The notes below the pieces were generated by a model. That model had not been told where the DNA came from and made no database searches. It saw only the letters and a list, made by a program, of their open reading frames with translations. From positions 99,954 through 123,953 of the forward strand of contig CAVZEP010000033.1 of the NCBI GenBank assembly GCA_963774275.1: 24,000 nucleotides of DNA. The letters are read 5' to 3'. Below, in pieces: positions 3,073-21,950 of this stretch. A program made the position numbers and the translations under genes. How positions within the stretch are numbered: position 1 is the first letter of the stretch; each line of letters starts with the position of its first letter. Origin of the DNA: an uncultured Chloroflexia bacterium (lineage in GTDB: Bacteria; Chloroflexota; Anaerolineae; Anaerolineales; UBA4823).

Positions 3073-3777
3073 ATGGTAGCGTATTCCCTGTTACCTTTTC
3101 GGGAGGTGCAACGACATATGATTGGTATCACAGCGCAACAGTTCATGTGTAGGATACGTATGCTCAAACTCACCACACTATCTCTGTTCTTGACCTTTTT
3201 TAGCGCTCATCTAAATGGCAAAGCTGCTGACAGCTCAGTCACGAACGATGTTGAGCTGGCACGCCAAGCCGCTGGTAGTCCAGATGCCTTCACCGAGTTA
3301 TATCATCGCTATCTCCCCGGTATCTATCGCTACCACCTGGCGCGCACGGGTCACGTTCAGGAAGCTGAAGATCTGACTGCCCAAACCTTCCTCACTGCTC
3401 TGGAATCTATCCGGAGTTTCCGTGGGCAAGGCAGCTTTTCTTCCTGGCTGTTTGGTATTGCCAGCCACAAGCTGGTAGACCACTACCGCCGTAGCCGCAT
3501 TGAGCTACCCTTGGAAGAGGCGGAAACTCTGCACAGCCCCATCCCACTGCCAGAGGAAGCCACCCTGCAGCACCTGGAATTGGCACGCGTGGCGCAGGTG
3601 CTGCGCCTGATCAGTCCTGATCGGGCGGAAGCATTGGTACTCTGTCTATTTGGTGGATTGAGCCTGGCTGAGGCAGCCAAATCGGTGGGTAAGAGCGAGG
3701 CAGCAGTGAAGATGTTGGTTCATCGAGGCTTAAGTGACCTGCAGGAACGGTTAGCTGCACATCTGGAGGTGGCGTGA
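3073..3777 (+). CDS. ECF-type RNA polymerase sigma-70 family factor
   Basis: Region 2: FTELYHRYLPGIYRYHLARTGHVQEAEDLTAQTFLTALESIRSFRG...SWLFGIASHKLVDHYRR. Region 4 HTH: PDRAEALVLCLFGGLSLAEAAKSVGKSEAAVKMLVHRGLSDLQERL. The start is uncertain: ATG 3118 follows GGAGG, and ATG 3160 is also possible. The stop overlaps the next gene (GTGATGA). Confidence 0.85.
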   Translation: MVAYSLLPFREVQRHMIGITAQQFMCRIRMLKLTTLSLFLTFFSAHLNGKAADSSVTNDVELARQAAGSPDAFTELYHRYLPGIYRYHLARTGHVQEAEDLTAQTFLTALESIRSFRGQGSFSSWLFGIASHKLVDHYRRSRIELPLEEAETLHSPIPLPEEATLQHLELARVAQVLRLISPDRAEALVLCLFGGLSLAEAAKSVGKSEAAVKMLVHRGLSDLQERLAAHLEVA

Positions 3778-5624
3778 TGAACGAAAACCAAAAGCTTCCT
3801 TCGGCCAAAGAGCTTGCTGAGCTGTCCGCCTACTTAGCCGCCCGCGAGCGTGGGGTGCAGCCCGCAACCGACGCTCCTGGTTTTCCAGGCGGTCTTGCGG
3901 GGGCACTGCTCAAGTTGGCTGAAAGCACCGAGCCTGATCCTGATTTTGTTGCTCGGCTGGAGCGAGAGCTTCGCCAGGCAGCCAGGACAGGTGTGCACGC
4001 CTCCCGCACGAGTTGGCTGTCTGCGCTGTGGCAATCATTCTCCCTACCCGAAAGGAAAATTGCCATGAAACGCTTACTTACATTTGCAGTCGTCGGTATT
4101 ATCTTGTTCGTCGTATTGTGGGTGTCGATCCCATCTCTCTTCCCATCCTCCACCCAAACACAGGTGGCACTGGTTACCCCACCCACTCATACCCCCGCAC
4201 CCACACCCCTGTCGCCTCTCACCCCTACCGTGGTTCCGCCCACCTTGCCTTCACCGGTAGCGATCAACTTTACCCCTCAACCCATCCCCGTACAACCACC
4301 TGCTTTACCAGACCTGGTGAGTGCCCTTGGAGCAGGTTATGGAGGGTCGGGTGGAGGTAACCTGCCAGAAGGGTTGCCTCTCAGCCTGGCCACCCAGCTG
4401 CCTGCTGGTCCATCAGAGGTCACCGCTTATTACCGCCTGGAGAATACCCCACTGACCCTCGAAGAAGCCAGCCAGATTGCTGCTAAGTGGGGCCTGGAGC
4501 CAAAGTTGTATATGCCTGGCTGGATGCAGTCTATTTCACCTGACGAGATGGAGCGTAGCTACATCGCCGTGGATGGGATGCAGGCTCTCTCCATATGGAA
4601 CGGTGAGCTGTCTTACACGGACCTATCGATTTTTCCCATCTATGCTGGTCACCAATACCCGCAAATGGGTCTGCCCCCTTCAGACCAGGCAGCTGTGACT
4701 GCCACTCAATACCTGACCGAGCGCGGCATCCTGGATTACCCCTATATAGTTGACCTGAGTGGTTACGATTATGGATTGGTTAATTTCTACCGTCAGTTGG
4801 ACGACCTGACCATCAGTTTTCACGCCGCTTCGGTTAAGATCAATCCGCAAGGGCAGGTAGGCTCAGCCTGGGTCAGTCGGGAGCAGTACCAATCCGTTGG
4901 AACCTACCCGGTTTTGAGCGCCGAAAAAGCCTGGGACTTACTCGTCGCTGGGCAACCCAGTGATCAGCTGTCCATCTCATACTACCCGACTCAAGACGGC
5001 AACCCCCAGTATTGGGGTCGGGTATACCCGGTAGGTCAATCTGTTCACTTGTTTGGCTCTCCTACCTACTGGCTGTCAGCGGATACTGGGGCAATGCCCC
5101 ATGTGCAGCTGAATAACCTGGTGCTGGCAGGAGATGTGTCTGGTCTTATGGAATACCTCCAGGCGAACCCGGGCTATATCCACGCCTGGGGGGAGGTGCA
5201 GGACGTGGATGGCACTCGCCAGCTGCAGCTGGCAGGCTGGGAGCCTTTTGATGAATTCAGTGGCTACTTTGATGGCACCGTAGGGCGTACCGCTGAAGGT
5301 GACTTTCTTGAGCTGGGTGATGGAAGGCGATTGAGCCTGCCCAACCTGCCTGCCGATGTTCCAGACGGCATCCCACTCTACGCTGAAGGGGGACTGGTAG
5401 GTGATAGCCTGGAATGGTTCATCTTGCAGGTTCACACGTCTGATGAAGGGCAGATGCCACCCGACCTGAGCCAGGCTCAAGCGGTAATTGATAAGGTCGA
5501 GCTGGTTTACCTCGCCCCCGGTCTGAGCAACGTGTCCCCCGCATATGGCACTCGACCCGGCTTTCCGCATGCTGTTGCCTGCCTGGAGCTTCTCCGGACT
5601 GATTACCAATGTGGATGGAACTGA
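3774..5624 (+). CDS. Putative membrane-anchored anti-sigma factor with a large extracytoplasmic domain
   Basis: 4-nt start/stop overlap with the ECF sigma gene. ~100-aa cytoplasmic N-terminus, a single TM helix (LLTFAVVGIILFVVLWVSIPSLF), a Pro-rich linker and a ~430-aa external domain with no family I recognise. No ZAS HxxxCxxC motif. The call is by position and topology only. Confidence 0.5.
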   Translation: MMNENQKLPSAKELAELSAYLAARERGVQPATDAPGFPGGLAGALLKLAESTEPDPDFVARLERELRQAARTGVHASRTSWLSALWQSFSLPERKIAMKRLLTFAVVGIILFVVLWVSIPSLFPSSTQTQVALVTPPTHTPAPTPLSPLTPTVVPPTLPSPVAINFTPQPIPVQPPALPDLVSALGAGYGGSGGGNLPEGLPLSLATQLPAGPSEVTAYYRLENTPLTLEEASQIAAKWGLEPKLYMPGWMQSISPDEMERSYIAVDGMQALSIWNGELSYTDLSIFPIYAGHQYPQMGLPPSDQAAVTATQYLTERGILDYPYIVDLSGYDYGLVNFYRQLDDLTISFHAASVKINPQGQVGSAWVSREQYQSVGTYPVLSAEKAWDLLVAGQPSDQLSISYYPTQDGNPQYWGRVYPVGQSVHLFGSPTYWLSADTGAMPHVQLNNLVLAGDVSGLMEYLQANPGYIHAWGEVQDVDGTRQLQLAGWEPFDEFSGYFDGTVGRTAEGDFLELGDGRRLSLPNLPADVPDGIPLYAEGGLVGDSLEWFILQVHTSDEGQMPPDLSQAQAVIDKVELVYLAPGLSNVSPAYGTRPGFPHAVACLELLRTDYQCGWN

Positions 5625-5678: not shown

Positions 5679-5709
5679 AGGGGCTGCCCTTACGTTTTGG
5701 GCAGCCCCT
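5679..5709. terminator. Bidirectional intrinsic terminator hairpin between convergent genes
   Basis: Perfect 11-bp stem AGGGGCTGCCC (5679-5689) / GGGCAGCCCCT (5699-5709) with a 9-nt loop. T-rich on the plus side downstream (TTGATTAATG). It lies between the + gene ending at 5624 and the - gene ending at 5781. Confidence 0.55.
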
Positions 5710-5780: not shown

Positions 5781-6551
5781 TCATGAAAGGGATTTACCGG
5801 GTATGGTCTTAGGCAGGAAGACTGTCCACAATAACATCACTGTGATCAAGCCGAATGTGATCCAGGTGGGTGTCGTAACTGCCCGTACGTCAGCGTGCTT
5901 GATGGCAATTCCGGCCAACGCCCACAGCAGAACCAGCGCATAAGCTATATCTCGCCGGGTAAAATTCATCAAGGCTGCGATCACCAACACGGCGATCAAA
6001 ATAATAGCCATCCAAATTTCCGGGGTTATCCCGATGCCGTCCCATTTCAAGTAATCGAGCACCGAAGTGATATTTGCCACCGTCGCGACTGTAATCCAAC
6101 CCAGGTAGATGCTGAAGGGCACGCGCGCTGCCCATTTCTCAATTGTTGATACCGAACTCCGTCCAATTCCAAGCCCCAGGTAGGTTGCGATCAGTGAGCC
6201 GAGCAGGATCAGCATGGCTACCACGGTCAACGGGAATTGCTCATAATGCCACAGGAAGATCCAGGCGATGTTCGCCAGTCCGCCCAGGGTGATCCACCAA
6301 CCCGTAGCACGCAAGCGGGGATTCTCTCGCTGGGAAGGTAAAACCTGGAAAATAGCGAAGGCAATCAGCCCAAGGTAGATTAAACCCCAGATGGAAAAAA
6401 CATACCCCGCCGGTACAAAATATACCCGGAAACGGTCAGAGATTTCCCCGGTATTCTGGCCGTTAATGGGTAAGGCATTGGCCAGTGTGTTTACCACAAT
6501 GGTAGCCGCTATGGTAAGGATTACAGAGATTTGTCGCAGGATATCTTTCAT
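5781..6551 (-). CDS. Tryptophan-rich multi-pass membrane protein, TspO/MBR-related (long form)
   Basis: ~7-8 predicted TM helices and 12 Trp. The N-terminal block NTLANALPINGQNTGEISDRFRVYFVPAGYVFSIWGLIYLGL resembles the long 'tryptophan-rich sensory protein' family as I remember it. RBS GGGAG upstream. The family call is from memory, not a search. Confidence 0.5.
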   Translation of the reverse strand: MKDILRQISVILTIAATIVVNTLANALPINGQNTGEISDRFRVYFVPAGYVFSIWGLIYLGLIAFAIFQVLPSQRENPRLRATGWWITLGGLANIAWIFLWHYEQFPLTVVAMLILLGSLIATYLGLGIGRSSVSTIEKWAARVPFSIYLGWITVATVANITSVLDYLKWDGIGITPEIWMAIILIAVLVIAALMNFTRRDIAYALVLLWALAGIAIKHADVRAVTTPTWITFGLITVMLLWTVFLPKTIPGKSLS

Positions 6552-6872
6552 GTTATTTACTCCCTATACTTTCTAAAACAGTGGATTTTCGATCATTCAA
6601 ACTTCCAGCCAAAGATAACAACCTCTTCATCTCTACCAAAGGGTTTCGAGATGAAAGTATTTTTGGTGGGTAAATATGGTGTGAATAAGTTGCATTTTTC
6701 CTCTTCGATTAGCCGTTCGATGCCAGTTTTCAGGATGATACGACCAATGATACAGCATTGTCGGACATTAATGGCTAGACCAAGCTTAACCCTACTCAAT
6801 TGACAAAAAAATTCAGCTACAAGAATTTTTCATGGGTTTATCTATAATCCGTCATGCATCAACCCAAACCAG

Positions 6873-8174
6873 TCATTCAGAAAGCAAATGTTTTGTAAGC
6901 CAATCCTGGATCACCGCACCCTCCTGTCCAAGATAACGTTCTACAGACTGGCGGTAAGATGAAAAATACTGTTTCACCCATCCGGTTGGGAGCCCATGAT
7001 TCTTAAGTAAGCCAATCAGCCAGGTGACCGCTGGATCTAAAAAAGAAATATCACCCAGTCTCAATGCAGAAGCAATGTATTGGCTGAGATTCATGTTGGC
7101 GACTTCCAAATAATTAGGCTCGATACCCTCATCTTGCATAGCAGAAAAGATATGTGCAATTATGAGTGCCTGATTCTTATTGAACTGCGCCAATGTTCGA
7201 GAATATTCGGGCGAGATTGGCTGAGTTTCCGGTAGGGAAGGAGACGTTACAACCAAGCGCTCGATGATCTGAGGAACCAGCATCAAGTCAGATCCCAGGT
7301 AATAACCAGAAATACACTTGGTGGCGGCAGGAATTTTTGTGAATATTCCACCTCCGAAAGCCATTGGAACACCTTGAGAGGCGATGTTTTCAGACATTGA
7401 GCGCAGGGAGGCTGCACTATTGAGTGTTTGAGCAGAAGAGAGGATTAATATTGGCGAGGTAGCTTGGATGGTGACATCCAGAGCATCGAGAGGCACACTG
7501 GCTCCCAGATAGATCATATCCCAACCACGCCTTCTAAGCAGGTAAGTAATCAACAGAAGGATGAAGTCGTGCGCCTCACCGGGTGGGCATGCAGCAAGGA
7601 TTCGCCCAGGTCGCGCAGGAGGTGTGGAAGAGATGGCAGACAGCAGGGTGTTGATCCTGCGCATGGCGATTGCGGAGGCAAAATGCTCCTGTTGAACGCT
7701 GATAGACCCGGTGTACCAGCCCTCTCCAATCTGTACCAGGCCTTTCCGCAGCACTTCCGTACAGACCGTCTCCGGGGATGCAATCGAGAAAGCCTGATCC
7801 AGTGTTTGGTTGGCAGCCTGGTCGTCAAAAACCAGGCAGGCAGCCAGCCATGCATCACGATGCTCATCGAGCATGGTTCCACCTGAGCCTGAGACCAGAA
7901 GGGGAGCATAGGTTGATTGTGCAGATTTAATTTGGCTTTTTGGCTGGCCCTTCCACATCTCTACTGCACTGCTGATGCTCAAGCCCTCTTTTTGCCTCTC
8001 GATCAGCCATTTGAGCATTTCGATATCCTGCCTGGAGTAAAGGCGATGACCACCGGGAGTCCGCTGTGGCTTGAGGAGCCCATAACGACGCTCCCATGCC
8101 CGTAAAGTTGCCGGGCTTAAACCTACTTCGTTAATTACCGCTTTCAGGTTATAGATGGGAGTATTGTCTGCCAT
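6873..8174 (-). CDS. litR: CarH/LitR-family light-responsive transcriptional regulator (MerR HTH + adenosylcobalamin-binding domain) with an extra ~124-aa C-terminal domain
   Basis: MerR HTH: YNLKAVINEVGLSPATLRAWERRYGLLKPQRTPGGHRLYSRQDIEMLKWL. Four-helix-bundle W-x9-E-H signature: GEGW(153)YTGSISVQQE(163)H(164)FAS. B12 lower-ligand motif: ACPPGE-A-H(202)DF...YLGASVPLDAL, with the H202 codon at 7569-7571. I chose start ATG 8174 (MADNTPIY). The track start 8279 would overlap the upstream gene by 37 nt and adds non-conserved residues. Confidence 0.85.
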   Translation of the reverse strand: MADNTPIYNLKAVINEVGLSPATLRAWERRYGLLKPQRTPGGHRLYSRQDIEMLKWLIERQKEGLSISSAVEMWKGQPKSQIKSAQSTYAPLLVSGSGGTMLDEHRDAWLAACLVFDDQAANQTLDQAFSIASPETVCTEVLRKGLVQIGEGWYTGSISVQQEHFASAIAMRRINTLLSAISSTPPARPGRILAACPPGEAHDFILLLITYLLRRRGWDMIYLGASVPLDALDVTIQATSPILILSSAQTLNSAASLRSMSENIASQGVPMAFGGGIFTKIPAATKCISGYYLGSDLMLVPQIIERLVVTSPSLPETQPISPEYSRTLAQFNKNQALIIAHIFSAMQDEGIEPNYLEVANMNLSQYIASALRLGDISFLDPAVTWLIGLLKNHGLPTGWVKQYFSSYRQSVERYLGQEGAVIQDWLTKHLLSE

Positions 8175-8242
8175 ATGGATGCCTATTTTGATAAAAAAAG
8201 TCTTTCCACAGCCCAATTCCGATGGATTACATTCCCGTGAGT

Positions 8243-9013
8243 TTATACCGGTGCCAGGGTGCCTGCAAAGATGATCCATGCCAGGACGGTCTTGGCAGCC
8301 AGGCTCAGGATGATATACACACGCTCGCCAAATAGATAATCCTTCCAGGGACCGACCTTCTTATATTGCAGCACCATATTCACTGCGAAGATGTTGAAGA
8401 AGACAAACAAGGTGGGGATGATGGCGTACACAAAAGCGGGTGGTTTTCCACCTTCACCAGCCAATGAGCCGATGAAATAGGTCACGATCACAATCCAGGG
8501 GATGATGCCAGCGATGGACCCATAGATGAATGCGGTCCAATTCGTCTTTTGCGTGTTCTGGTTATGGAGCTCCATCATGATTCCGAACAGGTTCATCATG
8601 GCATTGATACCAAAGATGAGTATGATGGCACCCAGGTCATAAATGCCCACCAGCATGCCAATCAGAACGATCATCACAGAAGAGGAAAGCGCATATTCAT
8701 AAAACCGTACTGGGTTCATGCCCTTCTTCAAGTTCGATACGTAAAGCTTGTTCCCGATTGTAGCCAGGAAAAAGTGCGCTACAGCCGAGATTAGCAGAAA
8801 GACCGCCACCGCAGGTCCAAAGCGAAGTTCAGCAGCCAATTTAAGGTCGGGGACCAGGGCCATTTTGGTCAAATCGAATTTCAGGAAGCTGGTATAAATC
8901 GGATAGGCGGTATCATTGCTTAGTACAATCATCAGGATGCCCTGTACCAGGTGTAAAAAGCCCATCACCAGGTTGAAACGGCGTAATCCCTTGAATTTCT
9001 TGTCGTTGTCCAT
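8243..9013 (-). CDS. Heliorhodopsin (retinal-binding 7-TM photoreceptor, inverted topology)
   Basis: By-eye alignment to heliorhodopsin 48C12:
- RFNLVMGFLHLVQ..LSND vs NFNRIAGVFHLLQ..LAND
- VRFYEYALSSSVMIVLIG vs FRWVEYSLSSSVMIVLIA
- GIIPWIVIV vs GIVPWIGLL
- FVYAIIPTLFVFFNIFA vs FVYGIIISLFLFFNSFA
- GERVYIILSLAAKTVLAWIIFAGTLAPV vs GERAYIVLSLVAKSALAWQIFSGTLIPA
Schiff-base Lys is K241 (codon 8291-8293). The counterion Glu is E106, and H21 and H80 are conserved. RBS GGAG upstream. Confidence 0.9.
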   Translation of the reverse strand: MDNDKKFKGLRRFNLVMGFLHLVQGILMIVLSNDTAYPIYTSFLKFDLTKMALVPDLKLAAELRFGPAVAVFLLISAVAHFFLATIGNKLYVSNLKKGMNPVRFYEYALSSSVMIVLIGMLVGIYDLGAIILIFGINAMMNLFGIMMELHNQNTQKTNWTAFIYGSIAGIIPWIVIVTYFIGSLAGEGGKPPAFVYAIIPTLFVFFNIFAVNMVLQYKKVGPWKDYLFGERVYIILSLAAKTVLAWIIFAGTLAPV

Positions 9014-9098
9014 TTTTATTCTCCATTCTACTTATGATTTTTTCCCCAAAAATGTCCCTCGTTTGGTGAATGAGCATTTAGTGGGTATTTATGGTAAA

Positions 9099-9142
9099 TT
9101 GTACATATATTGTATAGTTAATAATAACATATTGTATATATA
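9099..9142 (-). promoter_or_regulatory. Putative CarH/LitR operator: four phased 11-bp direct repeats
   Basis: Read on the minus strand: tAtaTatACAa (9142-9132), tAtgTtaTTAt (9131-9121, degenerate), tAacTatACAa (9120-9110), tAtaTgtACAa (9109-9099). Three of the four fit nAnnTnnACAn exactly. On the plus strand, TTGTAYA recurs at 9099, 9110 and 9132, which is an exact 11-bp register. The array lies 86-129 nt upstream of the heliorhodopsin ATG. Confidence 0.5.
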
Positions 9143-9149
9143 TTGGCAA
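9121..9149 (-). promoter_or_regulatory. Putative sigma70-type promoter of the heliorhodopsin-litR unit
   Basis: Minus strand: TTGCCA (9149-9144), a 17-nt spacer, then TATTAT (9126-9121). The direct repeats occupy the spacer, the -10 and the predicted +1 region. The region is AT-rich, so a chance match is possible. Confidence 0.35.
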
Positions 9150-9302
9150 GGAAATTGGGATTAATAGTTGCTTAAAAAAGTAGAAAATTAATCACGATAA
9201 CCGGGAGCGTTAATACATGGATCTCCTGATTTAGAACTGGTTACCGCCGGATAATATAGTACCGTTGTGTAAAAAGAAATCCTGGGGGTGAGGCGCTTTA
9301 TT

Positions 9303-10793
9303 TCAATCCAGCTCAGTCAGCTCATCCATGATTCGTTTTGCCACCAGGCGGGCAGAGATCATGGAGGTCGGGATACCTGTGCCGGGATGAGTGCTTGCGC
9401 CTACGAAGTATAAATTGTGCAAGCGCGGGTGTCGGTTGGAAGGGCGAAAATATCCCAATTGGGTCAAGTTATGCGATAAGCCGTGTGTGGAACCGTTCAC
9501 CAGGTTATATCGTTTACGCCAGGAAAGGGGTGTGAAAGACGTCTCAAATTTGATATGGGCTTCAAGATCTGTTATGCCAAGAGTCCGCAGCCGGCGGAAC
9601 ACGTGTGCGCGTGCCAGGTCTGTCAGGTTATCCCAATCCTGTTCCCCATTCTCAGACAGGTGCCCCACGGGTACGATGGCGATCAGGGTATCTTCACCTG
9701 GGGGTGCCATGGAGGGGTCAAGCCGCGTCGGAGCGTGGACATACAGGCTGGGATTGGCAGGTAGATCAAGGTCACGAATGATGGAATCAAAATTAGCTCG
9801 ATAATCATCCGCCAGGAAAAGGGTGTGTGGACCCAGGGTCTCGTAGGGTTTATCCACGCCCCAAAAGAAACTGATTACTGAGCATGAATAGTTCTTGCGG
9901 GATAATTTTTCTGCCAGGCCATCCATCGGCAGCAGGCTCTGGTATACATACGGCAGGTCGGCATTTGCCAGGAACACGTCCGCCCCCATTTTTAGGTTAT
10001 GTTCAAGTGTCACATCCTTGACGTGACCACTATCGACATTGATCCCCTCCGCGGTAGTATCAAAAGCAAATTCCACTCCAGCCTCACGAGCCAGGGCCAT
10101 GAGCGCATCCACGATGCTGTACATTCCTCCTTTCGGATACCACACCCCATGCGCTAGCTCTGTATACTGCATCAAGGAAAAGGTTGCAGGACCTTCAAAA
10201 GGGCTTAACCCCATGTACACGTCCTGGAAAGTGAATGCCGCCTTTAACCGTGGATTGTCGAAATATGCCGACATGTTGGCATAGTGTTTTACCAATGGTT
10301 TTAGCTGAAAAAGCAGTGGGATATTACCCAGGGAAAAGAATTCGGAAAATCGGCGAAAATCACGGTTGACTAACTTTTCCATCCCCAAACGATAGTGCCG
10401 TTCGCCCTCCTCATGATAGCGCATGAAACCCTGATATGCGCCTGCTTCAATTGATTCCAGCTGATCCCTCATGGATTGCATGTCCGAGGTGAGTGCCAGC
10501 TGGCTGCCATCGTCGAAAACCAGGCGATACGTCGGGTCCAACTGCTGCAGATTGAGTAAATTACTCATCGAGGTACCTAATGCTGCGAATTCTGCTTCAT
10601 AGACTCGTGGCATCACCAGCAGGGTTGGACCGGTATCAAAATGGTGACCCTCACGCTCAATCCAATCACAGCGCCCACCCGGGTTGGGGTTCTTTTCCAC
10701 CACAGTGACATGCAAGCCATGAGATGCCAGGTGGGTCGCTGCGCAGATCCCACCTATCCCCGCGCCGATGATAACCACTGATTTAGATTTCAT
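9303..10793 (-). CDS. crtI: Phytoene desaturase (bacterial CrtI type)
   Basis: N-terminal FAD fold VVIIGAGIGGICAATHLASHGLHVTVVEKNPNPGGRC. FDTGPTLL motif. C-terminal bacterial phytoene dehydrogenase signature NLYFVGASTHPGTGIPTSMISARL. The ATG overlaps the crtB stop (ATGA at 10790-10793). Confidence 0.9.
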   Translation of the reverse strand: MKSKSVVIIGAGIGGICAATHLASHGLHVTVVEKNPNPGGRCDWIEREGHHFDTGPTLLVMPRVYEAEFAALGTSMSNLLNLQQLDPTYRLVFDDGSQLALTSDMQSMRDQLESIEAGAYQGFMRYHEEGERHYRLGMEKLVNRDFRRFSEFFSLGNIPLLFQLKPLVKHYANMSAYFDNPRLKAAFTFQDVYMGLSPFEGPATFSLMQYTELAHGVWYPKGGMYSIVDALMALAREAGVEFAFDTTAEGINVDSGHVKDVTLEHNLKMGADVFLANADLPYVYQSLLPMDGLAEKLSRKNYSCSVISFFWGVDKPYETLGPHTLFLADDYRANFDSIIRDLDLPANPSLYVHAPTRLDPSMAPPGEDTLIAIVPVGHLSENGEQDWDNLTDLARAHVFRRLRTLGITDLEAHIKFETSFTPLSWRKRYNLVNGSTHGLSHNLTQLGYFRPSNRHPRLHNLYFVGASTHPGTGIPTSMISARLVAKRIMDELTELD

Positions 10794-11760
10794 CTTTCCT
10801 CGATTCGGTCTGATAAAGCCACCTGTTCACCTGGCTCTAGTTTCATCCAGGGAAAGTTAGCTATCGAAGTAAAGACCCTCCAGGCTATCCATAAACCAGC
10901 CTTGACGCTTTTTCGTTCGGGATATTCCGGTCGAAGGTAGTATTGATCCTGCTCAATCCTTCTGAGCATCCACTCAAAACGGGCAAGATAAGCGTAAGCT
11001 GCCAGTCGACTGCGCAGGTTTTTAACCTGGGCCATGTACTTCCTGCCACCGCTGAAATAGTGGCGGGCTAACTCCACTCTCCCGAATACCCACTTCCGGA
11101 ACGACAGGCGTGTGCAATTCTGCTAACGAAATCTTCTCTGATTGGATATATTCGCCGGGAATATTGAAATATCCTGCGGATATATCTTCCACTGTATCGC
11201 GCAGCATATGCACCATATGCGCACCGCACACTGCATCGTAACGGGTTTCAGAAATGGGAGGGGGATCTTTGTGACCGATCAAGTAAAACAGCACCTCCGT
11301 CACAGCCGTGGAGAGTAAATGTGTATATTCGGTTAATTCGGCGTGGGAAATAACTCGACCACAGCGTTCCACGTCAAATGCCATCACCTTCATCATATTG
11401 CTTAGATAAAACTGCAGCCCACTGTGTTCTTCCTGATCGTTTCGGACCAAATCCACCAGCATCTGCTCCTCAGGGCTCACATCTCCCGGAAAATTCCCCT
11501 GATAACAAGCCTCCAGAAACGCTTGCTGATGTTGTATCAGGGTGATCTTTTCTTGTTTTGTACCTGAATTGCAGTCAAGAAGATCGTCCAACCATCGAAA
11601 ATAGGCATAAGCCCGAAAAGCATCGTCCACACGCTCTCGATCCGCTAAGAGACGGAATGTGTAATACGTCTGCTTGCTGCCTGCTCTGGTAATCCTGGCA
11701 GGTAAACCTGGCTCCCCCGATTGCGTAGAGTGCTTTGAGCGATATAACAGTTTTGAACAT
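10790..11760 (-). pseudogene. crtB: Phytoene/squalene synthase family gene (CrtB-like) interrupted by two apparent +1 frameshifts
   Basis: Three reading segments cover one family-typical protein:
- MFKTVISLKALYAIG... starts at ATG 11760.
- ...GLPARITRAGSKQTYYTFRLLADRERVDDAFRAYAYFRWLDDLLD...MVHMLRDTVEDISAGYFNIPGEYI is the frame of track ORF 11022-11630, open upstream to 11750 with no ATG/GTG/TTG.
- SFRKWVFGRVELARHYFSGGRKYM...AAYAYLARFEWMLRRIE is track ORF 10790-11077.
The shifts lie at the C5 run 11714-11718 and within about 11101-11120. Confidence 0.8.
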
Positions 11761-12026
11761 ATTTATCAACTTTCCGAATCCGGATTACAAGTATACTCCG
11801 TTAATTATTACGTAAAATGAGTGTGAACGCCTCAGATAAGATAGACATAATGATCGGGGTTACTTCCTGGAAAATAGAGGATTAATCAGCAGGGTTAATC
11901 GATTAGCTGTGGCAGGAATTAATACTCATCATAATTATCATAATAAAGGAAATGATCGTATGAGGCATATGTGGTGGTAAGATTATCTCACTCAACTAAA
12001 AAAACACATTACTACTGGAGGGATTT

Positions 12027-13148
12027 ATGGATGCAAAAATGCAAGCCACTGCATTGGCCAGCTTGAAAGATGAGCTCAATGGAGGCTACCTGTACGATGC
12101 CCTAGCCCAAGCGGAGAAAGATACCCGCCTGGCAGAAGTTTATCGGCGGATGGCAGTCGTGGAGCGCAAGCATGCTGCCGTATGGACGGAAAGGTTAAAA
12201 GCTGCCGGGGTGGCAATCCCTGAGTTTGTGCCTAATTGGCGTAGCCGAACCCTTGCCTGGGCAGCCAAACGCCTGGGTGTGGCAGCAGTTTTACCCACGG
12301 TCATTGGGAATGAACGGAAAGATAGCCGTAAATATGCTCACACACCCGGTGGTGCAGAGATGGCAGCGGATGAATCATCCCATAACCGCTTGCTGAGTCG
12401 CGTGGCTTCCACCATGAAGGGTGGGATGGAGGGTGGGGCGCTGGCTCAACTGGAGGGAAGGCATCGGGCGGGTGGTGGCAATGCATTGCGCGCCGCGGTA
12501 CTTGGTGCAAATGATGGCCTGGTATCAAATTTGAGCCTGGTTATGGGCGTTGCTGGGGCTGCGCTTAATAATTCAGCCATCCTGATCACCGGTTTTGCTG
12601 GGTTACTGGCTGGTGCAATCTCGATGGCCCTGGGGGAATGGCTCTCGGTACAAAGCTCAAGGGAATTGTACAAGCATCAGATTGGCATTGAAAAAGCTGA
12701 GCTGGCAGCCGCCCCAGAAGAAGAAGCGGAAGAGTTGGCATTGATCTATGAGGCACGTGGCGTACCCAAGGATGAGGCCCAACGCATGGCACAGCACATT
12801 ATCAGTGACCCGGCTTCAGCCCTCGAAACGTTGGCACGCGAAGAGCTTAATGTGAATCCATCCGAGTTGGGTGGTTCAGCCTGGGAGGCAGCCCTAACAT
12901 CCTTCTTTCTTTTCACCATTGGGGCGATCATCCCTGTGATTGCCTTTACTTTCCTCACCGGTTTTACTGCGGTGATTGTCAGCATGGTATTGAGCGGGGT
13001 CGGGCTATTTATCATCGGTGCGGGTATTACCCTGTTCACCGGGCGAAATTTGCTTTATTCTGGTGTGAGGCAGGTATTATTTGGCCTGATTGCAGCCATG
13101 GTCACCTATGGTATCGGCCGGTTGGTCGGAGGTAATCTGGGCGGATAG
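12027..13148 (+). CDS. mbfA: Erythrin-VIT1 fusion (MbfA-like membrane-bound ferritin / VIT-family iron exporter)
   Basis: N-terminal ferritin-like domain (LNGGYLYDALAQAEKDTRLAEVYRRMAVVERKHAAVW). C-terminal VIT1/CCC1 domain (ALRAAVLGANDGLVSNLSLVMGVAGA, GEWLSVQSSRE, TM helices at the C-terminus). RBS GGAGG at 12017-12021. Confidence 0.8.
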   Translation: MDAKMQATALASLKDELNGGYLYDALAQAEKDTRLAEVYRRMAVVERKHAAVWTERLKAAGVAIPEFVPNWRSRTLAWAAKRLGVAAVLPTVIGNERKDSRKYAHTPGGAEMAADESSHNRLLSRVASTMKGGMEGGALAQLEGRHRAGGGNALRAAVLGANDGLVSNLSLVMGVAGAALNNSAILITGFAGLLAGAISMALGEWLSVQSSRELYKHQIGIEKAELAAAPEEEAEELALIYEARGVPKDEAQRMAQHIISDPASALETLAREELNVNPSELGGSAWEAALTSFFLFTIGAIIPVIAFTFLTGFTAVIVSMVLSGVGLFIIGAGITLFTGRNLLYSGVRQVLFGLIAAMVTYGIGRLVGGNLGG

Positions 13149-13195: not shown

Positions 13196-13465
13196 TCAGG
13201 CTGGACACCGATCAGGGAGCGGTATGGCAATTTTCGAAGACCGCCGAGCGAGTTTTAGATAGAAACGTTCATAGCCTGGGCTTTCCATGAATGCCCACAG
13301 GCTGCCCATCTCTCCAGTCTGCCCGCATGAGGCGCATTCGATTGACCCCACTGTCATCTCTACATCGAACACTTCGTGCAGAATACCCGCCATCGCATTG
13401 CCATCCAGCATCAAGGATACGCTTTCCTCAAATAGGTTGGTTTCCATTCTATCTCCTGCCATCAT
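13196..13465 (-). CDS. DUF6510-like small protein
   Basis: LDGNAMAGILHEVFDVEMTVGSIECASCGQTGEMGSLWAF... and the C-terminal ...IAIPLPD resemble DUF6510 proteins that follow ferredoxin reductase genes. The usual second CxxC appears to be missing. 4-nt overlap with the upstream reductase gene. Family call from memory. Confidence 0.5.
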   Translation of the reverse strand: MMAGDRMETNLFEESVSLMLDGNAMAGILHEVFDVEMTVGSIECASCGQTGEMGSLWAFMESPGYERFYLKLARRSSKIAIPLPDRCPA

Positions 13466-14235
13466 GAACTTCCAGTTGGTCCAAAGCGTTCTGTACGGAT
13501 CTGGCTCGCAGGGATGTCAAGCGTCACCAGCCCATTGGCAACTCCTTCCACGAGCGTAGTTGGACCGCAGATATAAGCTTTGACTTCATTCCCGAGCGGT
13601 CTTGCAACCTCCTCCAGCATTTGCATATCGATCCGTCGCCTATAGCCGTCCCATCCCTGTGGTTGTTCACGCGTCAGGACATGGAATACCTCCAGGCCTG
13701 AGCCATTTGCCCTTAAATAATCAATTTCGTCTCGATAAATAATATCTTCATATGTACGGGAGCTGTAAAGCAATCGCACCGGCACTTTAGAGCCTGAAGC
13801 ACACCGGTGGCGGATCATCGCCATCAACGGGACGATGCCTGAACCTCCGGCGACCAGGAGCAGTGGTCCTCCCATGCTCGCTTCCCACACGAAATACCCG
13901 CCAATCGGACCGCGTAGTTCCACCTGGTCACCCACAATGAGGAGATCATGCAAATACGTGGAAACTTCCCCATCTTCCAGGCGTTCAATGGTGAGCTCTA
14001 TCTCGCCAATCTGCTCGGGGGTGGATGCGATTGAATAACTGCGCTGAGCCTGATATCCATCCGGGGCAGTCAACCGAACATCATAGTGCTGGCCTGCCCG
14101 ATGAGGTCTCCAATCTGGCAATGCCAGGGTAAAGGTCTTGACGCTTCGCGTCTCCTGCCTGACCTTGACCACAGTGGATATCCGCCATTCCAACACTCGT
14201 GGCAGCACACCATCTTTAATCAGTTCTGTCTCCAT
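13462..14235 (-). CDS. FNR-like ferredoxin reductase (FAD/NAD(P)-binding oxidoreductase)
   Basis: FAD motif RSYSIAS. GEVSTYLH. NAD(P) motif LLLVAGGSGIVPLMAMIRH. C-terminal ICGPTTLVE...ERFG. I chose start ATG 14235 (METELIKDG); the track start 14313 extends 26 poorly coding codons into the upstream gene. Confidence 0.8.
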   Translation of the reverse strand: METELIKDGVLPRVLEWRISTVVKVRQETRSVKTFTLALPDWRPHRAGQHYDVRLTAPDGYQAQRSYSIASTPEQIGEIELTIERLEDGEVSTYLHDLLIVGDQVELRGPIGGYFVWEASMGGPLLLVAGGSGIVPLMAMIRHRCASGSKVPVRLLYSSRTYEDIIYRDEIDYLRANGSGLEVFHVLTREQPQGWDGYRRRIDMQMLEEVARPLGNEVKAYICGPTTLVEGVANGLVTLDIPASQIRTERFGPTGSS

Positions 14236-14860
14236 AATAGCGTTCCTCTTTCCATGGATCACCGTGATTGTTGTAACCCAATGATTCCCAAAAGCCTGGC
14301 TTGTCAGTTTCAATTAGGGTCAATCCACGTACCCATTTTGCGCTTTTCCAAAAGTAGAGGGCCGGTACAACCAGGCGCGCCGGGCCTCCATGCTCTGGTG
14401 CCAGTGGAGCATTGTTGTATAGATATCCTATAAATGCCTTCCCACCCATGATTTCGTTCAATGGCATGTTAGTAGTGTATCCCCCGTCACAGAATGCGGT
14501 CACGAAATGTGCATTTGGATCGACCTCCACCAATTCCAACAAGATATCGACGCTGACTCCCTCCCATTGGGTATCCAGTTTCGACCATTTTGTAACACAG
14601 TGGATGTCTACCGTGAAATTGCGGGAAGGTAGGCGTTGAAATTCGGACCAAGACCAGCGTACAGGTTGCCTCACCAGACCATTGATCTCAAAGTTCCACC
14701 GGTCTAGATGTGTGCGTGGAGTAGGTCCGGCTGAAAGGACGGGGAAATCATTGGTGACATATTGCCCAGGTGGTACCCGGTCGGGAGGGTTGTCTAATCT
14801 GCGTTTTCCTAAAAATCCACGGGAATGAAATATTCTGCTCATTTTGCCCACCCAAATCAT
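14216..14860 (-). CDS. Sulfite-oxidase-like molybdopterin oxidoreductase (small, catalytic domain only)
   Basis: SUOX-fold Moco domain: FPVLSAGPTP...W.F.I.G, the Mo-ligand Cys context VDIHCVTKWSKLDTQWEGV, EHGGPARLVVPALYFWKSAKWVRGL and PGFWESLGYNNHGDPWKEERY. The start may be ATG 14842. Confidence 0.85.
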   Translation of the reverse strand: MIWVGKMSRIFHSRGFLGKRRLDNPPDRVPPGQYVTNDFPVLSAGPTPRTHLDRWNFEINGLVRQPVRWSWSEFQRLPSRNFTVDIHCVTKWSKLDTQWEGVSVDILLELVEVDPNAHFVTAFCDGGYTTNMPLNEIMGGKAFIGYLYNNAPLAPEHGGPARLVVPALYFWKSAKWVRGLTLIETDKPGFWESLGYNNHGDPWKEERYYGDRTD

Positions 14861-15477: not shown

Positions 15478-15993
15478 TTATTCTGGAGTGTAAGGAGCCT
15501 GGCGATCGATGTTGCCAACAAACTGCGGTAAATTAGTATGCCCCAGCATTTGCCGGATCGCTAGGTTTTCGCCAATATGGTACCAGTAATGATAAATCGT
15601 CCGCTGAAGCAAATCTCCAAATATCCGAGTCGATGGCTGGCCGTCTTTCAATACGGGATGTCCCTGCAGCTTCTCACTGGTTAAGCTTTCCAGCCAAGGG
15701 TCAGCTGCTTTTGTGATCTTATTCCAATACGCAAGCATATCACGCAGTGGGGGTGTGCTTGCAGGAGCGCCATAAGCGTAAGCATCCTGCACCTCCGGAT
15801 ATGGCATTAGTCCCTGCCCATAATATAGAAAATACCTCTGTTCCTGCCAGGCCAGATGACCCACATTCCAGCTGATGCAGTTCATCGGCAAGAGGCGCTT
15901 GCCAGCATCTTCCTGTGATAATCCTTTGAGTGCCCGCTTGAATTCTGTGCGGGTGAATTTCAATTGCAGGACGAGAGGGTGTATCGTTGTCAT
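15478..15993 (-). CDS. DinB-family (DinB_2) four-helix-bundle metalloprotein
   Basis: Size and motifs are DinB-like: SWNVGHLAWQEQRYFL, then HYWYHIGENLAIRQMLGH (a His triad spread over the helices). Confidence 0.7.
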   Translation of the reverse strand: MTTIHPLVLQLKFTRTEFKRALKGLSQEDAGKRLLPMNCISWNVGHLAWQEQRYFLYYGQGLMPYPEVQDAYAYGAPASTPPLRDMLAYWNKITKAADPWLESLTSEKLQGHPVLKDGQPSTRIFGDLLQRTIYHYWYHIGENLAIRQMLGHTNLPQFVGNIDRQAPYTPE

Positions 15994-16359
15994 TTTGTCC
16001 CTCCAATAAAAAATCGCTTACGAATTATTGAAGATTAATTTCAGCTAAAGCTGTCTCAACGTAATTATAACCATAATTGTCCAAATATCGGAAGATGTTC
16101 TTGAATTATTACGTGTGCACTTGTTGAAAACCTATTGTATCCCTGGAATTATGACTGGTTTTCGCTTTGCTTTCCATATATGATGAACCATGACGAGAGG
16201 GCATTAGCCCCCTACAACGTACGTCGACTCGCACATCAAATTTTGTCCCGCGCCCAAGACTGATCCATATACTCAACCTGATCTGGTGATTAACGCCATC
16301 CACACAATTGTTGAGCAGGTACGCGGTGAGTGTGACTCTTTACTCCTTGCAGTGAATCG

Positions 16360-19907: not shown

Positions 19908-21950
19908 TCATTCCGTGCCGGTATTATTTTTCAACACCAATGGGAGGAAAATATACCAATCACCATGGATCACTGCGGTTATGACTGCTTCTCCCATAAC
20001 CACTGAAGGCAATTCAGCGCACTTCACACCATATACTTCGTTGACTATTTCATCCCCATCTGTCAACGTTTGGCTAACCGATACAACCAGTTTTACAGTC
20101 AGACTGCTGGTGGTAGCTACAGTCAGGTTATCCCATTGCACCAGGTCCCCTACCAGAGTGCCACCCGAATCGGCTGAGAAAAAAGTAGTGTTCTCGGGTA
20201 GGGTATCAGTAATGGAGACTGCGGTGGCATCGGCATCACCTGTGTTTTCCACGGTTATCGTGTAGGTTAACAACCCGCCGGCTTCTACCACCGCCACATT
20301 TGCAGTCTTGGTGATATTTAGATTCGGCACAGGCTTATGCACCACTGCGGTTGTGACCGCTTCTCCCATCACAGCTGAAGGCAGTTCAGCGCACTCCACA
20401 CTGTAGACTTCGTTGATAATTTCATCTCCATCTGTCAACGTTTGACTTACCAATACTACCCACGTGACGGTCTGACTGCTGTTGGGGGCTATTGTCAGGC
20501 TATCCCATTGCACCTGATCTCCTACCAGAACACCACCTGAGTCGGCTGAAACAAAGGCAGTGTTCTCAGGAAGGGTATCAGCGATGAAGACTTCGGTGGC
20601 GTCGGCATATCCCATGTTTTCCACGGTTATTGTGTAGGTTAGCAGACTCCCGGCTTCCACCACCTCCAGGTTTGCTGTCTTGGTAATACTCAAATCCGGT
20701 TCAGGCACGCTGCCGCTCGACGCACCCCACGAACTTGTTGAAAGATTTACTTCATTTTCCCGGAAGAGTATTGGCAACGCGAGTACTGAGCCACTATTTT
20801 CTACCACAGCATAATAGATCCCGTCATAACCCTGCCAGGTGAACACCGCGTTATCGTCAGCGTCTCGGGTCAACGAGATGTAATAGTTCTCATTAGATCG
20901 TGGGTTTGTGAAACCAGTTTGCCATACCAGCCTGGCCGAAGACCACCCCTCAAACTCGTGCATTTCCATGATGACCTGGTGAGGGCCAGCCGTGAGTGGT
21001 ACAGAAGCTATCCAGCTATTGCAGCACTCACCCCAATGATCCATGATGAGCACACCGTCAATAAACAAGCGGCTGCCATCATCACTCGACATGATGAATT
21101 GATAGGTATTTTCTGTCAGGGTGATGGTGCTTGTCCAGCGTGCTGAGAAATGGTCGTAGTTAACAGCTGGGTCGGGAGAGCCGCTAAACCATTCAAAATC
21201 AATTGTGCTGTCAGTGCGAGTCCAGGCGGCTGGTTCGGTCAGGGTTTCGTTGTTGTAGTACCGTGCTTCCCATCCCACCTCACCCTGGTTGTTCAGCGAG
21301 AAGAGAATATCATATGAGCTGTCCAGTACAGCATATTTGACCTGCCTGCCCCAATCGGGATAATAACCATACTCTCCCCAGGCGATGACCGTATTTCCAT
21401 TGCGCAGCCCGACCGCGTCGGAATAATCAACATCATAGCTGGACTGGCTCAATTGGGTGATCGGATAAATAATGTCCCCGGCGCTGTCCAGGACGGCATA
21501 GAAGATTTGGTTACCTGTGTCACCACTGCCCTCCCAGGTGATTAGTATGTTGCCATTCTCCAGGCGGTTGGCACGAGGAGCATAGTCGTAACCCCCAGGA
21601 TCATTATTTGTCAGGTTGGTCGGCCCGCTGAGCAGGCTGCCGCTGCTGTCCAGGATGGCATAATAAACATCTTCTATATTGTTTATTTCGACGTATTGGT
21701 ACCAGGTGATGAAAAAGCGCCCATCGCCAAAGGCTGCTGTCGAGGGCTGATAATCTCGGATCGTCCAATTGGTATTAGCTGTTAGTGGGGTAGGTGCAAG
21801 TACCTCCTCACCCGCTGGTCCACGCACAGCATAATAGATATTGTAGAACCAGTTGCCCGTATTATCAGCCTCATAACGATACCAGGCAAGGAGCACATTT
21901 CCATTCGTCTGGGCTACAGAGGGGGAGGGATTATAGTCATAGGTGTACAT
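19908..21950 (-). CDS. C-terminal portion of a giant secreted/surface protein: repeat blades, a PA14 domain and 2x DUF11 repeats
   Basis: ~55-aa blades with the pattern Y-x-P-x-[VA]-A-x4-G-N-x-[LI]-[LI]-x-W ... [IV]-[FY]-Y-A-[VI]-[LV]-D-x-x-G. PA14 (~20919-21275): WEARYYNN...IDFEWFSGSP...DHFSARWTSTITL..TYQF...SDDGSRLFIDG...GPHQVIMEMHEFEGWSSARLVW. Two DUF11 copies (ITKTAN..VVEAG..LTYTITVEN.G.ADAT...TDTLPENT). The track ORF extends to 22145, but residues upstream of M66 (21950) look like out-of-frame junk. Confidence 0.7.
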   Translation of the reverse strand: MYTYDYNPSPSVAQTNGNVLLAWYRYEADNTGNWFYNIYYAVRGPAGEEVLAPTPLTANTNWTIRDYQPSTAAFGDGRFFITWYQYVEINNIEDVYYAILDSSGSLLSGPTNLTNNDPGGYDYAPRANRLENGNILITWEGSGDTGNQIFYAVLDSAGDIIYPITQLSQSSYDVDYSDAVGLRNGNTVIAWGEYGYYPDWGRQVKYAVLDSSYDILFSLNNQGEVGWEARYYNNETLTEPAAWTRTDSTIDFEWFSGSPDPAVNYDHFSARWTSTITLTENTYQFIMSSDDGSRLFIDGVLIMDHWGECCNSWIASVPLTAGPHQVIMEMHEFEGWSSARLVWQTGFTNPRSNENYYISLTRDADDNAVFTWQGYDGIYYAVVENSGSVLALPILFRENEVNLSTSSWGASSGSVPEPDLSITKTANLEVVEAGSLLTYTITVENMGYADATEVFIADTLPENTAFVSADSGGVLVGDQVQWDSLTIAPNSSQTVTWVVLVSQTLTDGDEIINEVYSVECAELPSAVMGEAVTTAVVHKPVPNLNITKTANVAVVEAGGLLTYTITVENTGDADATAVSITDTLPENTTFFSADSGGTLVGDLVQWDNLTVATTSSLTVKLVVSVSQTLTDGDEIVNEVYGVKCAELPSVVMGEAVITAVIHGDWYIFLPLVLKNNTGTE
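19962..20705 (-). repeat. Tandem 2 x 372-bp direct repeat (duplicated DUF11 domain inside the CDS)
   Basis: Copy B (19962-20333) and copy A (20334-20705) align colinearly at the DNA level. Long identical runs include ttcatc.ccatctgtcaacgtttg and cactgcggtt.tgac.gcttctcccat. By eye, roughly four-fifths of bases are identical. Each encodes a 124-aa DUF11-type module. Confidence 0.8.

Follow-up and report, generated by a model that had tools for sequence, protein, structure and literature searches.

A heliorhodopsin gene beside a LitR-type B12 regulator and behind a predicted CarH-type operator in an Anaerolineae carotenoid gene cluster

Contig CAVZEP010000033.1 of an uncultured Anaerolineales bacterium (phylum Chloroflexota; assembly GCA_963774275.1) carries a heliorhodopsin (HeR) gene that is directly followed by litR, a gene for a MerR-family, B12-binding regulator related to the photoreceptor-repressor CarH. 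We analysed 24,000 nucleotides of this contig (positions 99,954 to 123,953), hereafter the window, and all coordinates are positions within this 24-kb window. The cluster lies on the minus strand at 5781-11760, in the order crtB-like gene, crtI, a 289-bp gap, HeR, a 68-bp gap, litR (MerR-B12), a 321-bp gap and a TspO-like gene. We consider it likely that this is a light-derepressed operon of the CarH/LitR kind with HeR as its first gene, in which LitR represses in the dark and light relieves the repression. An earlier sequence-only reading of the same DNA had claimed this gene order, which is indeed present, with corrections to the crtB-like gene, to the 321-bp gap and to the TspO link; that observation was largely right and is partly confirmed. 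It had also offered two models, and the first of them, in which LitR makes HeR light-inducible, is well supported in silico: a conserved CarH-type operator overlaps the HeR promoter.

The gene families, the match and conservation of the operator, the fold match of LitR and the neighbourhood patterns were observed directly, and the mechanism that we propose is the following. In the dark, LitR loaded with adenosylcobalamin (AdoCbl) would oligomerise on four 11-bp repeats covering the promoter spacer, the -10 box and the start region, and RNA polymerase would be blocked. Ultraviolet, blue or green light would photolyse the cofactor, LitR would leave the DNA, and HeR, litR and probably the TspO-like gene would be transcribed. 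The circuit would be self-resetting, because litR belongs to the unit that it would repress. HeR would then be a cargo of the light-stress regulon and not its sensor; its synthesis is probably restricted to the light, within a gene cluster for sun protection.

Relatives were compared in two neighbourhood surveys, whose loci bear L-numbers. The HeR-side survey covered 80 species-representative genome loci, with HeR 73-94% identical to that of the window, and the LitR-side survey covered 80 metagenome loci, with LitR 33-62% identical.

The heliorhodopsin gene, its promoter and its predicted operator

The HeR gene (8243-9013, minus strand) encodes 256 amino acids and is covered by both dedicated profiles over their whole length: PF18761 with 338.6 bits (cut-off 26.7; profile positions 1-242 of 242) and the NCBIfam profile NF038020 with 369.3 bits (cut-off 100; 1-244 of 244). 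The Schiff-base lysine of the seventh transmembrane helix is K241, as its segment SLAAKTVLAW shows when aligned with a published HeR, whose lysine lies in SLVAKSLLAW. A GGAG ribosome-binding site lies 9 nt upstream of the start codon, and the protein is 88-94% identical to many HeRs of Anaerolineales and other Chloroflexota.

A promoter/operator had been proposed in the 289-bp gap between crtI and HeR (9014-9302), and the best sigma-70-like site of the region does sit there. This promoter (9121-9149, minus strand) consists of TTGCCA, a 17-nt spacer and a TG-extended TATTAT; with 10 of 12 matches it is the best promoter-like site between 5500 and 12200, and it is kept in an alignment of the orthologous upstream regions. 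Over it lies a predicted CarH/LitR-type operator (9099-9142, minus strand), made of four tandem 11-bp direct repeats, TATATATACAA TATGTTATTAT TAACTATACAA TATATGTACAA, which spans from just past the -35 box over the -10 box and the likely start site. CarH operators follow the consensus nAnnTnnACAn, which occurs as three repeats in Thermus and as four in Bacillus megaterium (PMC8156234). Against four copies of this consensus the site scores 18 out of 20 (5, 3, 5 and 5 of 5 for the successive units): three units are perfect, and the degenerate one, TATGTTATTAT, holds the -10 box. No other site in the 24 kb, on either strand, reaches a score of at least 16.

The operator region is 74% A+T, which would fit a reading in which HeR was inserted here by accident with an AT-rich promoter of its own; the repeats would then reflect promoter composition, and litR would act elsewhere, e.g. 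on crtBI or on a photolyase gene. However, none of 5000 shuffles of the gap, and none of 5000 shuffles of its AT-rich core, reaches 18. The ACA triplets also keep their 11- or 22-bp phasing in most orthologues while the other positions vary. In the relatives L002, L003, L005, L006 and L081, the only high-scoring operator within 15-20 kb is again found just upstream of HeR. Among the Anaerolineae HeR loci, 9 out of 78 have an upstream score of at least 15, versus 5 of 1445 random windows and 4 of 123 AT-rich windows, and operator-like sites precede HeR even in species without an adjacent LitR (L054, L035, L042, L001, L032). Nor did we find an alternative operator upstream of crtB or elsewhere in these loci. 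The best scores upstream of crtB, litR and the TspO-like gene in the window are 12, 9 and 14 out of 20, i.e. background. Because of these background scores, we rejected the possibility that crtBI shares the operator of HeR; the region upstream of crtB carries a different conserved motif.

The spacer between HeR and litR (8175-8242, minus strand) places the litR start 68 bp past the HeR stop. The absence of an obvious terminator, noted in the sequence-only reading, holds: promoter and terminator scans and folding revealed in these 68 bp no promoter-like site, no terminator-like site and no stable fold (folding z-score +1.47). Since it contains neither promoter nor terminator, HeR and litR would be expected to be co-transcribed, although the spacer sequence is not conserved among relatives and forms hairpins in two of them.

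A weaker CarH-like site with three repeats (13 out of 15) was observed at 16104-16145 on the minus strand, about 120 bp upstream of a DinB_2-family gene (15478-15993), which could be a second LitR target. This site is followed by the 11-mer ACGTAATAATT, of which the window contains only two copies; the second precedes the crtB-like start by 44 bp, at 11803-11813 (minus strand). The 11-mer may be a shared extended -10 element, or else a second regulator may bind there.

Neighbourhoods and history of the cluster

The sequence-only reading had suggested a neighbourhood survey for the pairing of HeR with MerR-B12 genes. Such pairs do occur, with the long LitR directly downstream of HeR on the same strand in 4 of the 80 HeR-side loci (L002, L003, L005, L006), but the pairing is not general. 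In two further loci, LitR is divergent from HeR (L049) or 2.6 kb upstream of it (L055), and these are independent HeR-LitR arrangements. The remaining 74 loci lack LitR within 6-10 kb. From the LitR side, HeR is found upstream only in the four closest loci (L081, L082, L083, L149), and about 70 of the 80 long LitR loci are without HeR. The direct adjacency of HeR and LitR is confined to one Anaerolineae subclade. In the metagenome-assembled genomes (MAGs) L003/L045 and L004/L048, two HeR paralogues each were found, about 90% and about 76% identical to the HeR of the window; out of these four copies, only the 91% copy in L003 adjoins LitR. The neighbourhoods of the ~76% lineage (L011, L012, L017, L036, L050, L056, L079 and others) are very variable, the commonest neighbours being a 132-amino-acid membrane protein about 90 bp upstream and a membrane protein of about 290 amino acids (cluster 4) downstream.

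Across the orthologous loci, HeR, LitR, CrtI and the TspO-like protein are 62-94% identical to their counterparts. In the HeR-bearing clade, HeR and LitR stay paired while crtBI is separated or missing: it lies 1.8-2.6 kb from the pair, split off by an unrelated gene, in L002 and L005, and it is absent from L003. The fullest string is that of L006, where HeR, LitR, a major facilitator superfamily (MFS) transporter, a photolyase, a PPOX-class gene, the TspO-like gene and a hydrolase follow each other with short gaps or overlaps. The MFS and photolyase genes are lacking in L005, and the TspO-like gene directly follows litR in L002 and L081. The idea of a "light island" put forward for the window thus holds, and it is stronger in relatives such as L006, with a photolyase in the same gene string. 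Another HeR is a published helper for photolyase (PMC9769723), a role which the photolyase in the relatives' string would fit.

In more distant loci of the LitR side, crtI is directly upstream of the long LitR (15 loci). Nearby genes in the LitR-side survey include a photolyase gene (15 loci), an MFS transporter gene (10 loci) and the TspO-like gene (5 loci). Since the more distant long LitRs follow crtI directly, the older state was probably a photoprotection cluster of crtB, crtI and litR, into which HeR was inserted between crtI and litR along with its operator-bearing promoter. That crtI is the ancestral partner of the long LitR would also suit an accidental insertion, as would the narrow clade in which the adjacency is seen and the highly variable neighbourhoods of Anaerolineae HeRs, where no neighbour family recurs in more than 9 of 80 loci. 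However, LitR is linked to HeR in the two further arrangements of L049 and L055, and together with the shuffles, the conserved phasing and the sites in front of HeR in species without an adjacent LitR, this makes an accidental origin of the pair, with no control of HeR by LitR, unlikely.

The regulator and the other genes of the window

The litR gene (6873-8174, minus strand; start set by the consensus N-terminus of its homologues) encodes 433 amino acids. Residues 6-76 (7947-8159) form a MerR-type winged helix-turn-helix DNA-binding domain (PF13411, 55.8 bits on residues 8-73), which aligns with its counterparts in Thermus CarH and Myxococcus CarA. Residues 98-296 (7287-7883) correspond to the B12-binding four-helix bundle and Rossmann domain (PF02607, PF02310), and the best solved relative of the protein is Thermus CarH (E = 1.8e-32). 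Using the definitions of the light-sensing and B12 motifs in PMC8156234 and PMC11796333, we found the signatures GxxW (G150-E-G-W153), Wx9EH (E163-H164), GxxH (H202) and GG (G274-G275). Residues W153, E163, H164, E200, H202 and G274-G275 are invariant in 41 LitR homologues. From the B12 motif ExHx2G-x41-SxV/T-x22-27-GG, residues E200, H202, S244 and G274-G275 are present with the right spacing. Judged by its sequence, LitR is a relative of CarH and not an equivalog.

LitR is about 135 residues longer than CarH. This C-terminal part (residues 297-433 and stop, 6873-7286) is predicted to be a helical, globin-like domain of the photoglobin/photocobilin type, from an AlphaFold (AF2) model and Foldseek. 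The model, which is alignment-based, has an overall predicted local distance difference test score (pLDDT) of 85.5; the 10-residue blocks of the C-terminal domain are mostly at 75-97, with the last few residues lower. A single-sequence AlphaFold model was poor (pLDDT 46) and was discarded in its favour. The top Foldseek matches are the photocobilins 8j2w, 8j2x and 8j2y, over 332-347 columns, with TM-scores of 0.78-0.83 (normalised to the target) and root-mean-square deviations of 3.4-4.4 Å, versus only about 0.6 for CarH. Because the model matches photocobilins best, LitR would consist of a B12 plus globin-like core joined to a MerR domain. A weak full-length phmmer alignment between LitR and 8j2w extends through the globin-like domain, and sequence searches with the C-terminal domain alone or with a full-length profile did not reach the photocobilin globin domain. 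The nearly invariant W385 aligns with Trp296 of the photocobilin SasPcob (offset derived from His108/H202). In the weak, low-confidence phmmer alignment, the position of SasPcob Asp270 falls on Asn360, and the conserved photoglobin Cys, as read from the sequence, is absent from the LitR C-terminal domain. The globin-like domain may add a bilin chromophore or may only stabilise the B12 domain. Shorter MerR-B12 regulators, which match only the first ~300 residues of LitR, were seen as tandem pairs in the distant metagenome loci L148, L155, L156 and L160.

The extra domain on LitR could be counted in favour of the second of the earlier models, with HeR as a light sensor in the membrane that modulates LitR or carotenogenesis. 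On this reading, HeR would act on LitR through protein contact, or would control carotenoid synthesis in some other way, and both proteins would form one signalling module. The tight same-strand pairing in one clade would agree with this, published HeRs bind same-operon partners (glutamine synthetase, photolyase, an ABC transporter), and Pseudomonas offers a precedent with its short LOV protein and class II LitR (PMC9758184). However, LitR keeps its own AdoCbl light-sensing signatures, whereas class II LitRs are without the B12 Rossmann domain, and the extra domain appears to be explained by the structural model, where a photocobilin-type globin domain packs against the B12 domain. Moreover, most long LitRs have no HeR nearby and most Anaerolineae HeRs no LitR, as counted above, and the operator stands in front of HeR, which therefore is marked as a target. 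We found no support for this model and regard it as very unlikely. Even less probable in our view is a combined arrangement, in which HeR and the MerR-fused photocobilin form a multi-chromophore unit (retinal, AdoCbl and possibly bilin) and HeR also feeds back on LitR. If it were true, HeR might for instance hold photolysed or apo LitR at the membrane and thereby tune the duration or the colour-dependence of the response; HeR would gain a transcription-factor partner, and LitR would serve a rhodopsin as effector, in the way that class II LitR serves the short LOV protein.

Several points weigh against the repression of HeR by LitR that we favour. One of the four operator repeats is degenerate. 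The crtB-like gene is without a CarH-type operator, which is unusual for a CarH regulon, and no consensus-matching operator was found in the 148 kb of distant crtI-litR loci that were searched; the consensus therefore does not transfer to them, and the operator model is validated only within the HeR-bearing clade. In LitR itself, the Gly of ExHxxG is replaced by Ile205 and the SxV/T element reads SAQ (Gln246), the consensus of the 41 homologues also having Ile and Gln at these positions, and the NCBIfam CarH equivalog NF052513 gives 148.6 bits versus a cut-off of 400. The GC-rich hairpins in the HeR-litR spacer of L003 and L149 could uncouple the two genes. The adjacency is missing in the locus with the closest HeR (L001, 94% identity), and also in L004 and L007-L009. 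Light induction of HeR is not general, since HeR transcript levels of an actinobacterium, A. photophilum, go up in darkness (PMC8591293). Finally, cofactor binding, repression, co-transcription and the role of HeR are steps that we infer.

The carotenoid genes required two corrections. The crtI-family phytoene desaturase gene (9303-10793, minus strand) is intact and encodes 496 amino acids; it matches TIGR02734 over its full length with 459 bits (cut-off 238.1) and is 77-81% identical to its orthologues in L002, L005, L006 and L081. The translational coupling of crtB and crtI that had been read from the sequence stands as regards the ATGA overlap of crtB stop and crtI start (10790-10793), but crtB is not one open reading frame (ORF). 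This crtB-like gene of the SQS/PSY family (10790-11759, minus strand) shifts its reading frame twice, at 11107-11109 and among the first 12 codons. In a tblastn check, the intact 322-amino-acid orthologues of L006 and L081 align colinearly with it in two frames, at 64-75% identity. The Pfam SQS_PSY profile is matched on both fragments (PF00494, 45.3 bits on the N-terminal one, 80.1 bits for the intact L006 orthologue). No phytoene-synthase equivalog was found for the protein (NF045686, 24.9 bits versus a cut-off of 550); its best equivalog matches are HpnD (61 bits) and HpnC (45 bits), far below their cut-offs. The cluster had also been described as next to the pathway for the retinal precursor. 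Early carotenoid steps do adjoin HeR, but neither a lycopene cyclase nor a carotenoid-cleavage gene was found among the profile-searched genes of the window, so that only the first steps adjoin HeR, and the crtB-like gene is broken.

The frame breaks reflect either a recent pseudogene or a local assembly error. Relatives show similar breaks: the photolyase gene of L006 (13431-14832) and a P-type ATPase gene of L003 (13473-16137) both come as two overlapping ORFs, so that broken frames are common in the MAG assemblies concerned. A further correction concerns the gap downstream of litR, which had been read as a plain gap. It measures 321 bp (6552-6872, minus strand) and contains what is left of a PPOX-class (F420-type) oxidoreductase gene after an internal deletion. 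Local alignments to the genes of L005 and L006 recovered a 5' piece (~6642-6738) and a 3' piece (~6552-6630), with matching N- and C-terminal peptides. Both L005 and L006 have the gene in intact form, the L006 copy matching TIGR03666 with 108 bits, and the gap contains no MFS or photolyase remnant. Around the PPOX-class gene, the relatives form a series from the full operon to its clean loss.

Two frame breaks in a 970-nt gene next to cluster genes that are single ORFs, an internally deleted PPOX-class gene and the absence of the MFS and photolyase genes present in L006 could be seen as signs of a decaying cluster, no longer a working unit, with crtB already a pseudogene and HeR and LitR possibly next. 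However, crtI, HeR, litR and the TspO-like gene are unbroken single ORFs, unlike the crtB-like gene, the operator and the promoter are intact, and the frame breaks could be assembly errors; the photolyase gene of L006 is split, too. Decay is thus quite unlikely, and it would concern the state of this locus without contradicting repression of HeR by LitR as a mechanism.

The last gene of the cluster (5781-6551, minus strand) encodes a TspO/MBR-related membrane protein of 256 amino acids with 8 helices, i.e. a core of ~165 amino acids with five helices and a C-terminal extension. The TspO/CrtK-like assignment in the sequence-only reading can be kept at the level of the family only and by an indirect route, via homologues. 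The protein of the window has no Pfam match (even at E 10) and no NCBIfam match, and two profile searches of solved structures did not reach TspO entries. Its homologues with 75-79% identity match PF03073 over residues 41-162 with 25-28 bits (cut-off 24), and PF03073 is also matched by 27 of 44 diverse family members (best E = 3.3e-9). This clade of ~255-amino-acid proteins comprises 5526 cluster representatives at E up to 0.001.

Inspection of the sequence showed a GC-rich stem-loop with a 10-bp stem (GGGGCTGCCC, 9-nt loop, GGGCAGCCCC; 5680-5708, no strand assigned) in the space where the TspO-like and anti-sigma genes converge. It is not listed by the terminator scan (9-nt loop, no T-run after it), and it is likely to mark the end of the transcription unit. 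The convergent genes (3073-5624, plus strand) encode an extracytoplasmic function (ECF) sigma factor and a putative 616-amino-acid anti-sigma factor, with a 4-nt overlap. This pair is also near the cluster in L081, and it has no CarH-type operator in the window. In Streptomyces, LitR acts through the ECF sigma factor LitS. On the other side, a gene fusing a ferritin-like/rubrerythrin domain to a VIT1 iron transporter (12027-13148, plus strand) is divergent from crtB, an arrangement also found in L006 (88% identity). Further away, two large ORFs at 19908-23991 (minus strand; 745 and 684 amino acids; DUF11, PA14 and Ig-like repeats) overlap by ~200 nt and may be another frame break in one big surface-protein gene. 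A frameshifted fusion considered at 13462-14860 was dismissed, the overlapping ORFs being probably an artefact of the extended start given by the ORF lister. An Rfam scan of the window gave no RNA family match and no cobalamin riboswitch.

Comparison with known systems

The function of HeR is still debated; in the known cases it assists another protein, namely glutamine synthetase, photolyase or an ABC transporter. A survey of HeR operons (Cho et al. 2024, PMC11109279) lists, in the parts consulted, "MerR family transcriptional regulator" among ten frequent HeR neighbours, as well as a "photolyase" group, and proposes that HeR modulates its neighbours by protein contact. Anaerolineales examples in its table show crtI, helR and, 58-75 bp further down, a "hypothetical protein", followed by MFS and photolyase; in one of them, a PPOX-class gene, a tryptophan-rich sensory protein and an alpha/beta hydrolase come next. 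In RBG_13_50_21, the "hypothetical protein" after helR is the long LitR, because the locus tags of HeR (A2Z71_06395) and LitR (A2Z71_06400) are consecutive, and RBG_13_48_10 likewise has consecutive tags (A2Y88_00915, A2Y88_00920). The sequence-only reading knew of no described HeR-LitR module, which overstates the novelty of the pairing. The MerR neighbours had thus been listed before, but the main text and the part of the supplement consulted do not recognise them as B12 photoreceptors and contain no B12 or cobalamin annotation, no operator and no light control of HeR transcription. In a full-text literature search, no top-ranked paper combined heliorhodopsin with LitR, CarH or B12-binding, and on the control of HeR expression the literature examined offered nothing beyond transcript profiles, the only expression data being those of the actinobacterium mentioned above.

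The locus therefore offers a concrete upstream input for HeR, i.e. a predicted B12 photoreceptor-repressor with a recognisable operator in the HeR promoter. If this is confirmed, HeR would belong to a classic light-stress regulon (carotenoids, photolyase) of Anaerolineae, which would argue for a photoprotective or repair-assisting role there. It also suggests that the "MerR" and "hypothetical" HeR neighbours of published surveys be read as photoreceptors. The pairing itself is confined to a narrow clade.

The regulator resembles the photocobilins SasPcob (8J2W/8J2X) and AbDPcob (8J2Y), since bundle, Rossmann and globin-like domains match over the whole chain and the Trp296 equivalent is conserved as W385. 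Photocobilins characterised to date stand alone or are joined to a diguanylate cyclase (PMC10979010), whereas the core is fused here to a MerR DNA-binding domain; in addition, the biliverdin-binding Asp270 appears as Asn360 in a low-confidence alignment, and the photoglobin Cys is absent. MerR helix-turn-helix plus B12 plus photoglobin is among the architectures reported in PMC8717448. No biological output of this architecture was found in the literature examined, and the HeR promoter would be a natural target promoter for a MerR-fused photocobilin.

In Pseudomonas, class II LitR and an adjacent short LOV photoreceptor control photolyase and other light-inducible genes (PMC9758184). The likeness is that a separate photoreceptor gene adjoins a gene of the LitR family. 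However, class II LitR has lost B12 binding and depends on LOV, whereas the LitR described here, judging from its residues, keeps the chromophore site, and its neighbour is a membrane rhodopsin behind LitR's predicted operator. As for the TspO-like protein, the carotenoid cluster of Rhodobacter encodes a tryptophan-rich TspO/CrtK membrane protein. Both clusters have a tryptophan-rich, TspO/MBR-related membrane protein beside carotenoid genes, but the present one has 256 amino acids and ~8 helices versus ~150-170 amino acids and five helices, falls below PF03073 detection and belongs to a separate large clade.

A further likeness is with the class I CarH/LitR proteins of Thermus thermophilus, B. 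megaterium and Myxococcus xanthus, which share with the LitR of the window the MerR domain, the four-helix bundle with Wx9EH and the Rossmann domain with its His lower ligand. As in these systems, tandem 11-bp repeats overlap a sigma-70 promoter (four, as in the B. megaterium operator), the regulator gene is at the 3' end of the operon that it would repress, and it is embedded in clusters with carotenoid and photolyase genes. In Myxococcus, carH sits at the 3' end of the carB operon that it represses. Unlike class I CarH, LitR here has an additional globin-like domain of ~135 amino acids and the Ile and SAQ motif changes, and HeR, not a carotenoid gene, is directly behind the operator, with none at crtB. 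The cluster is therefore likely to represent a variant CarH/LitR regulon and not a system of a new type, and its likely mechanism is ordinary CarH-type repression.

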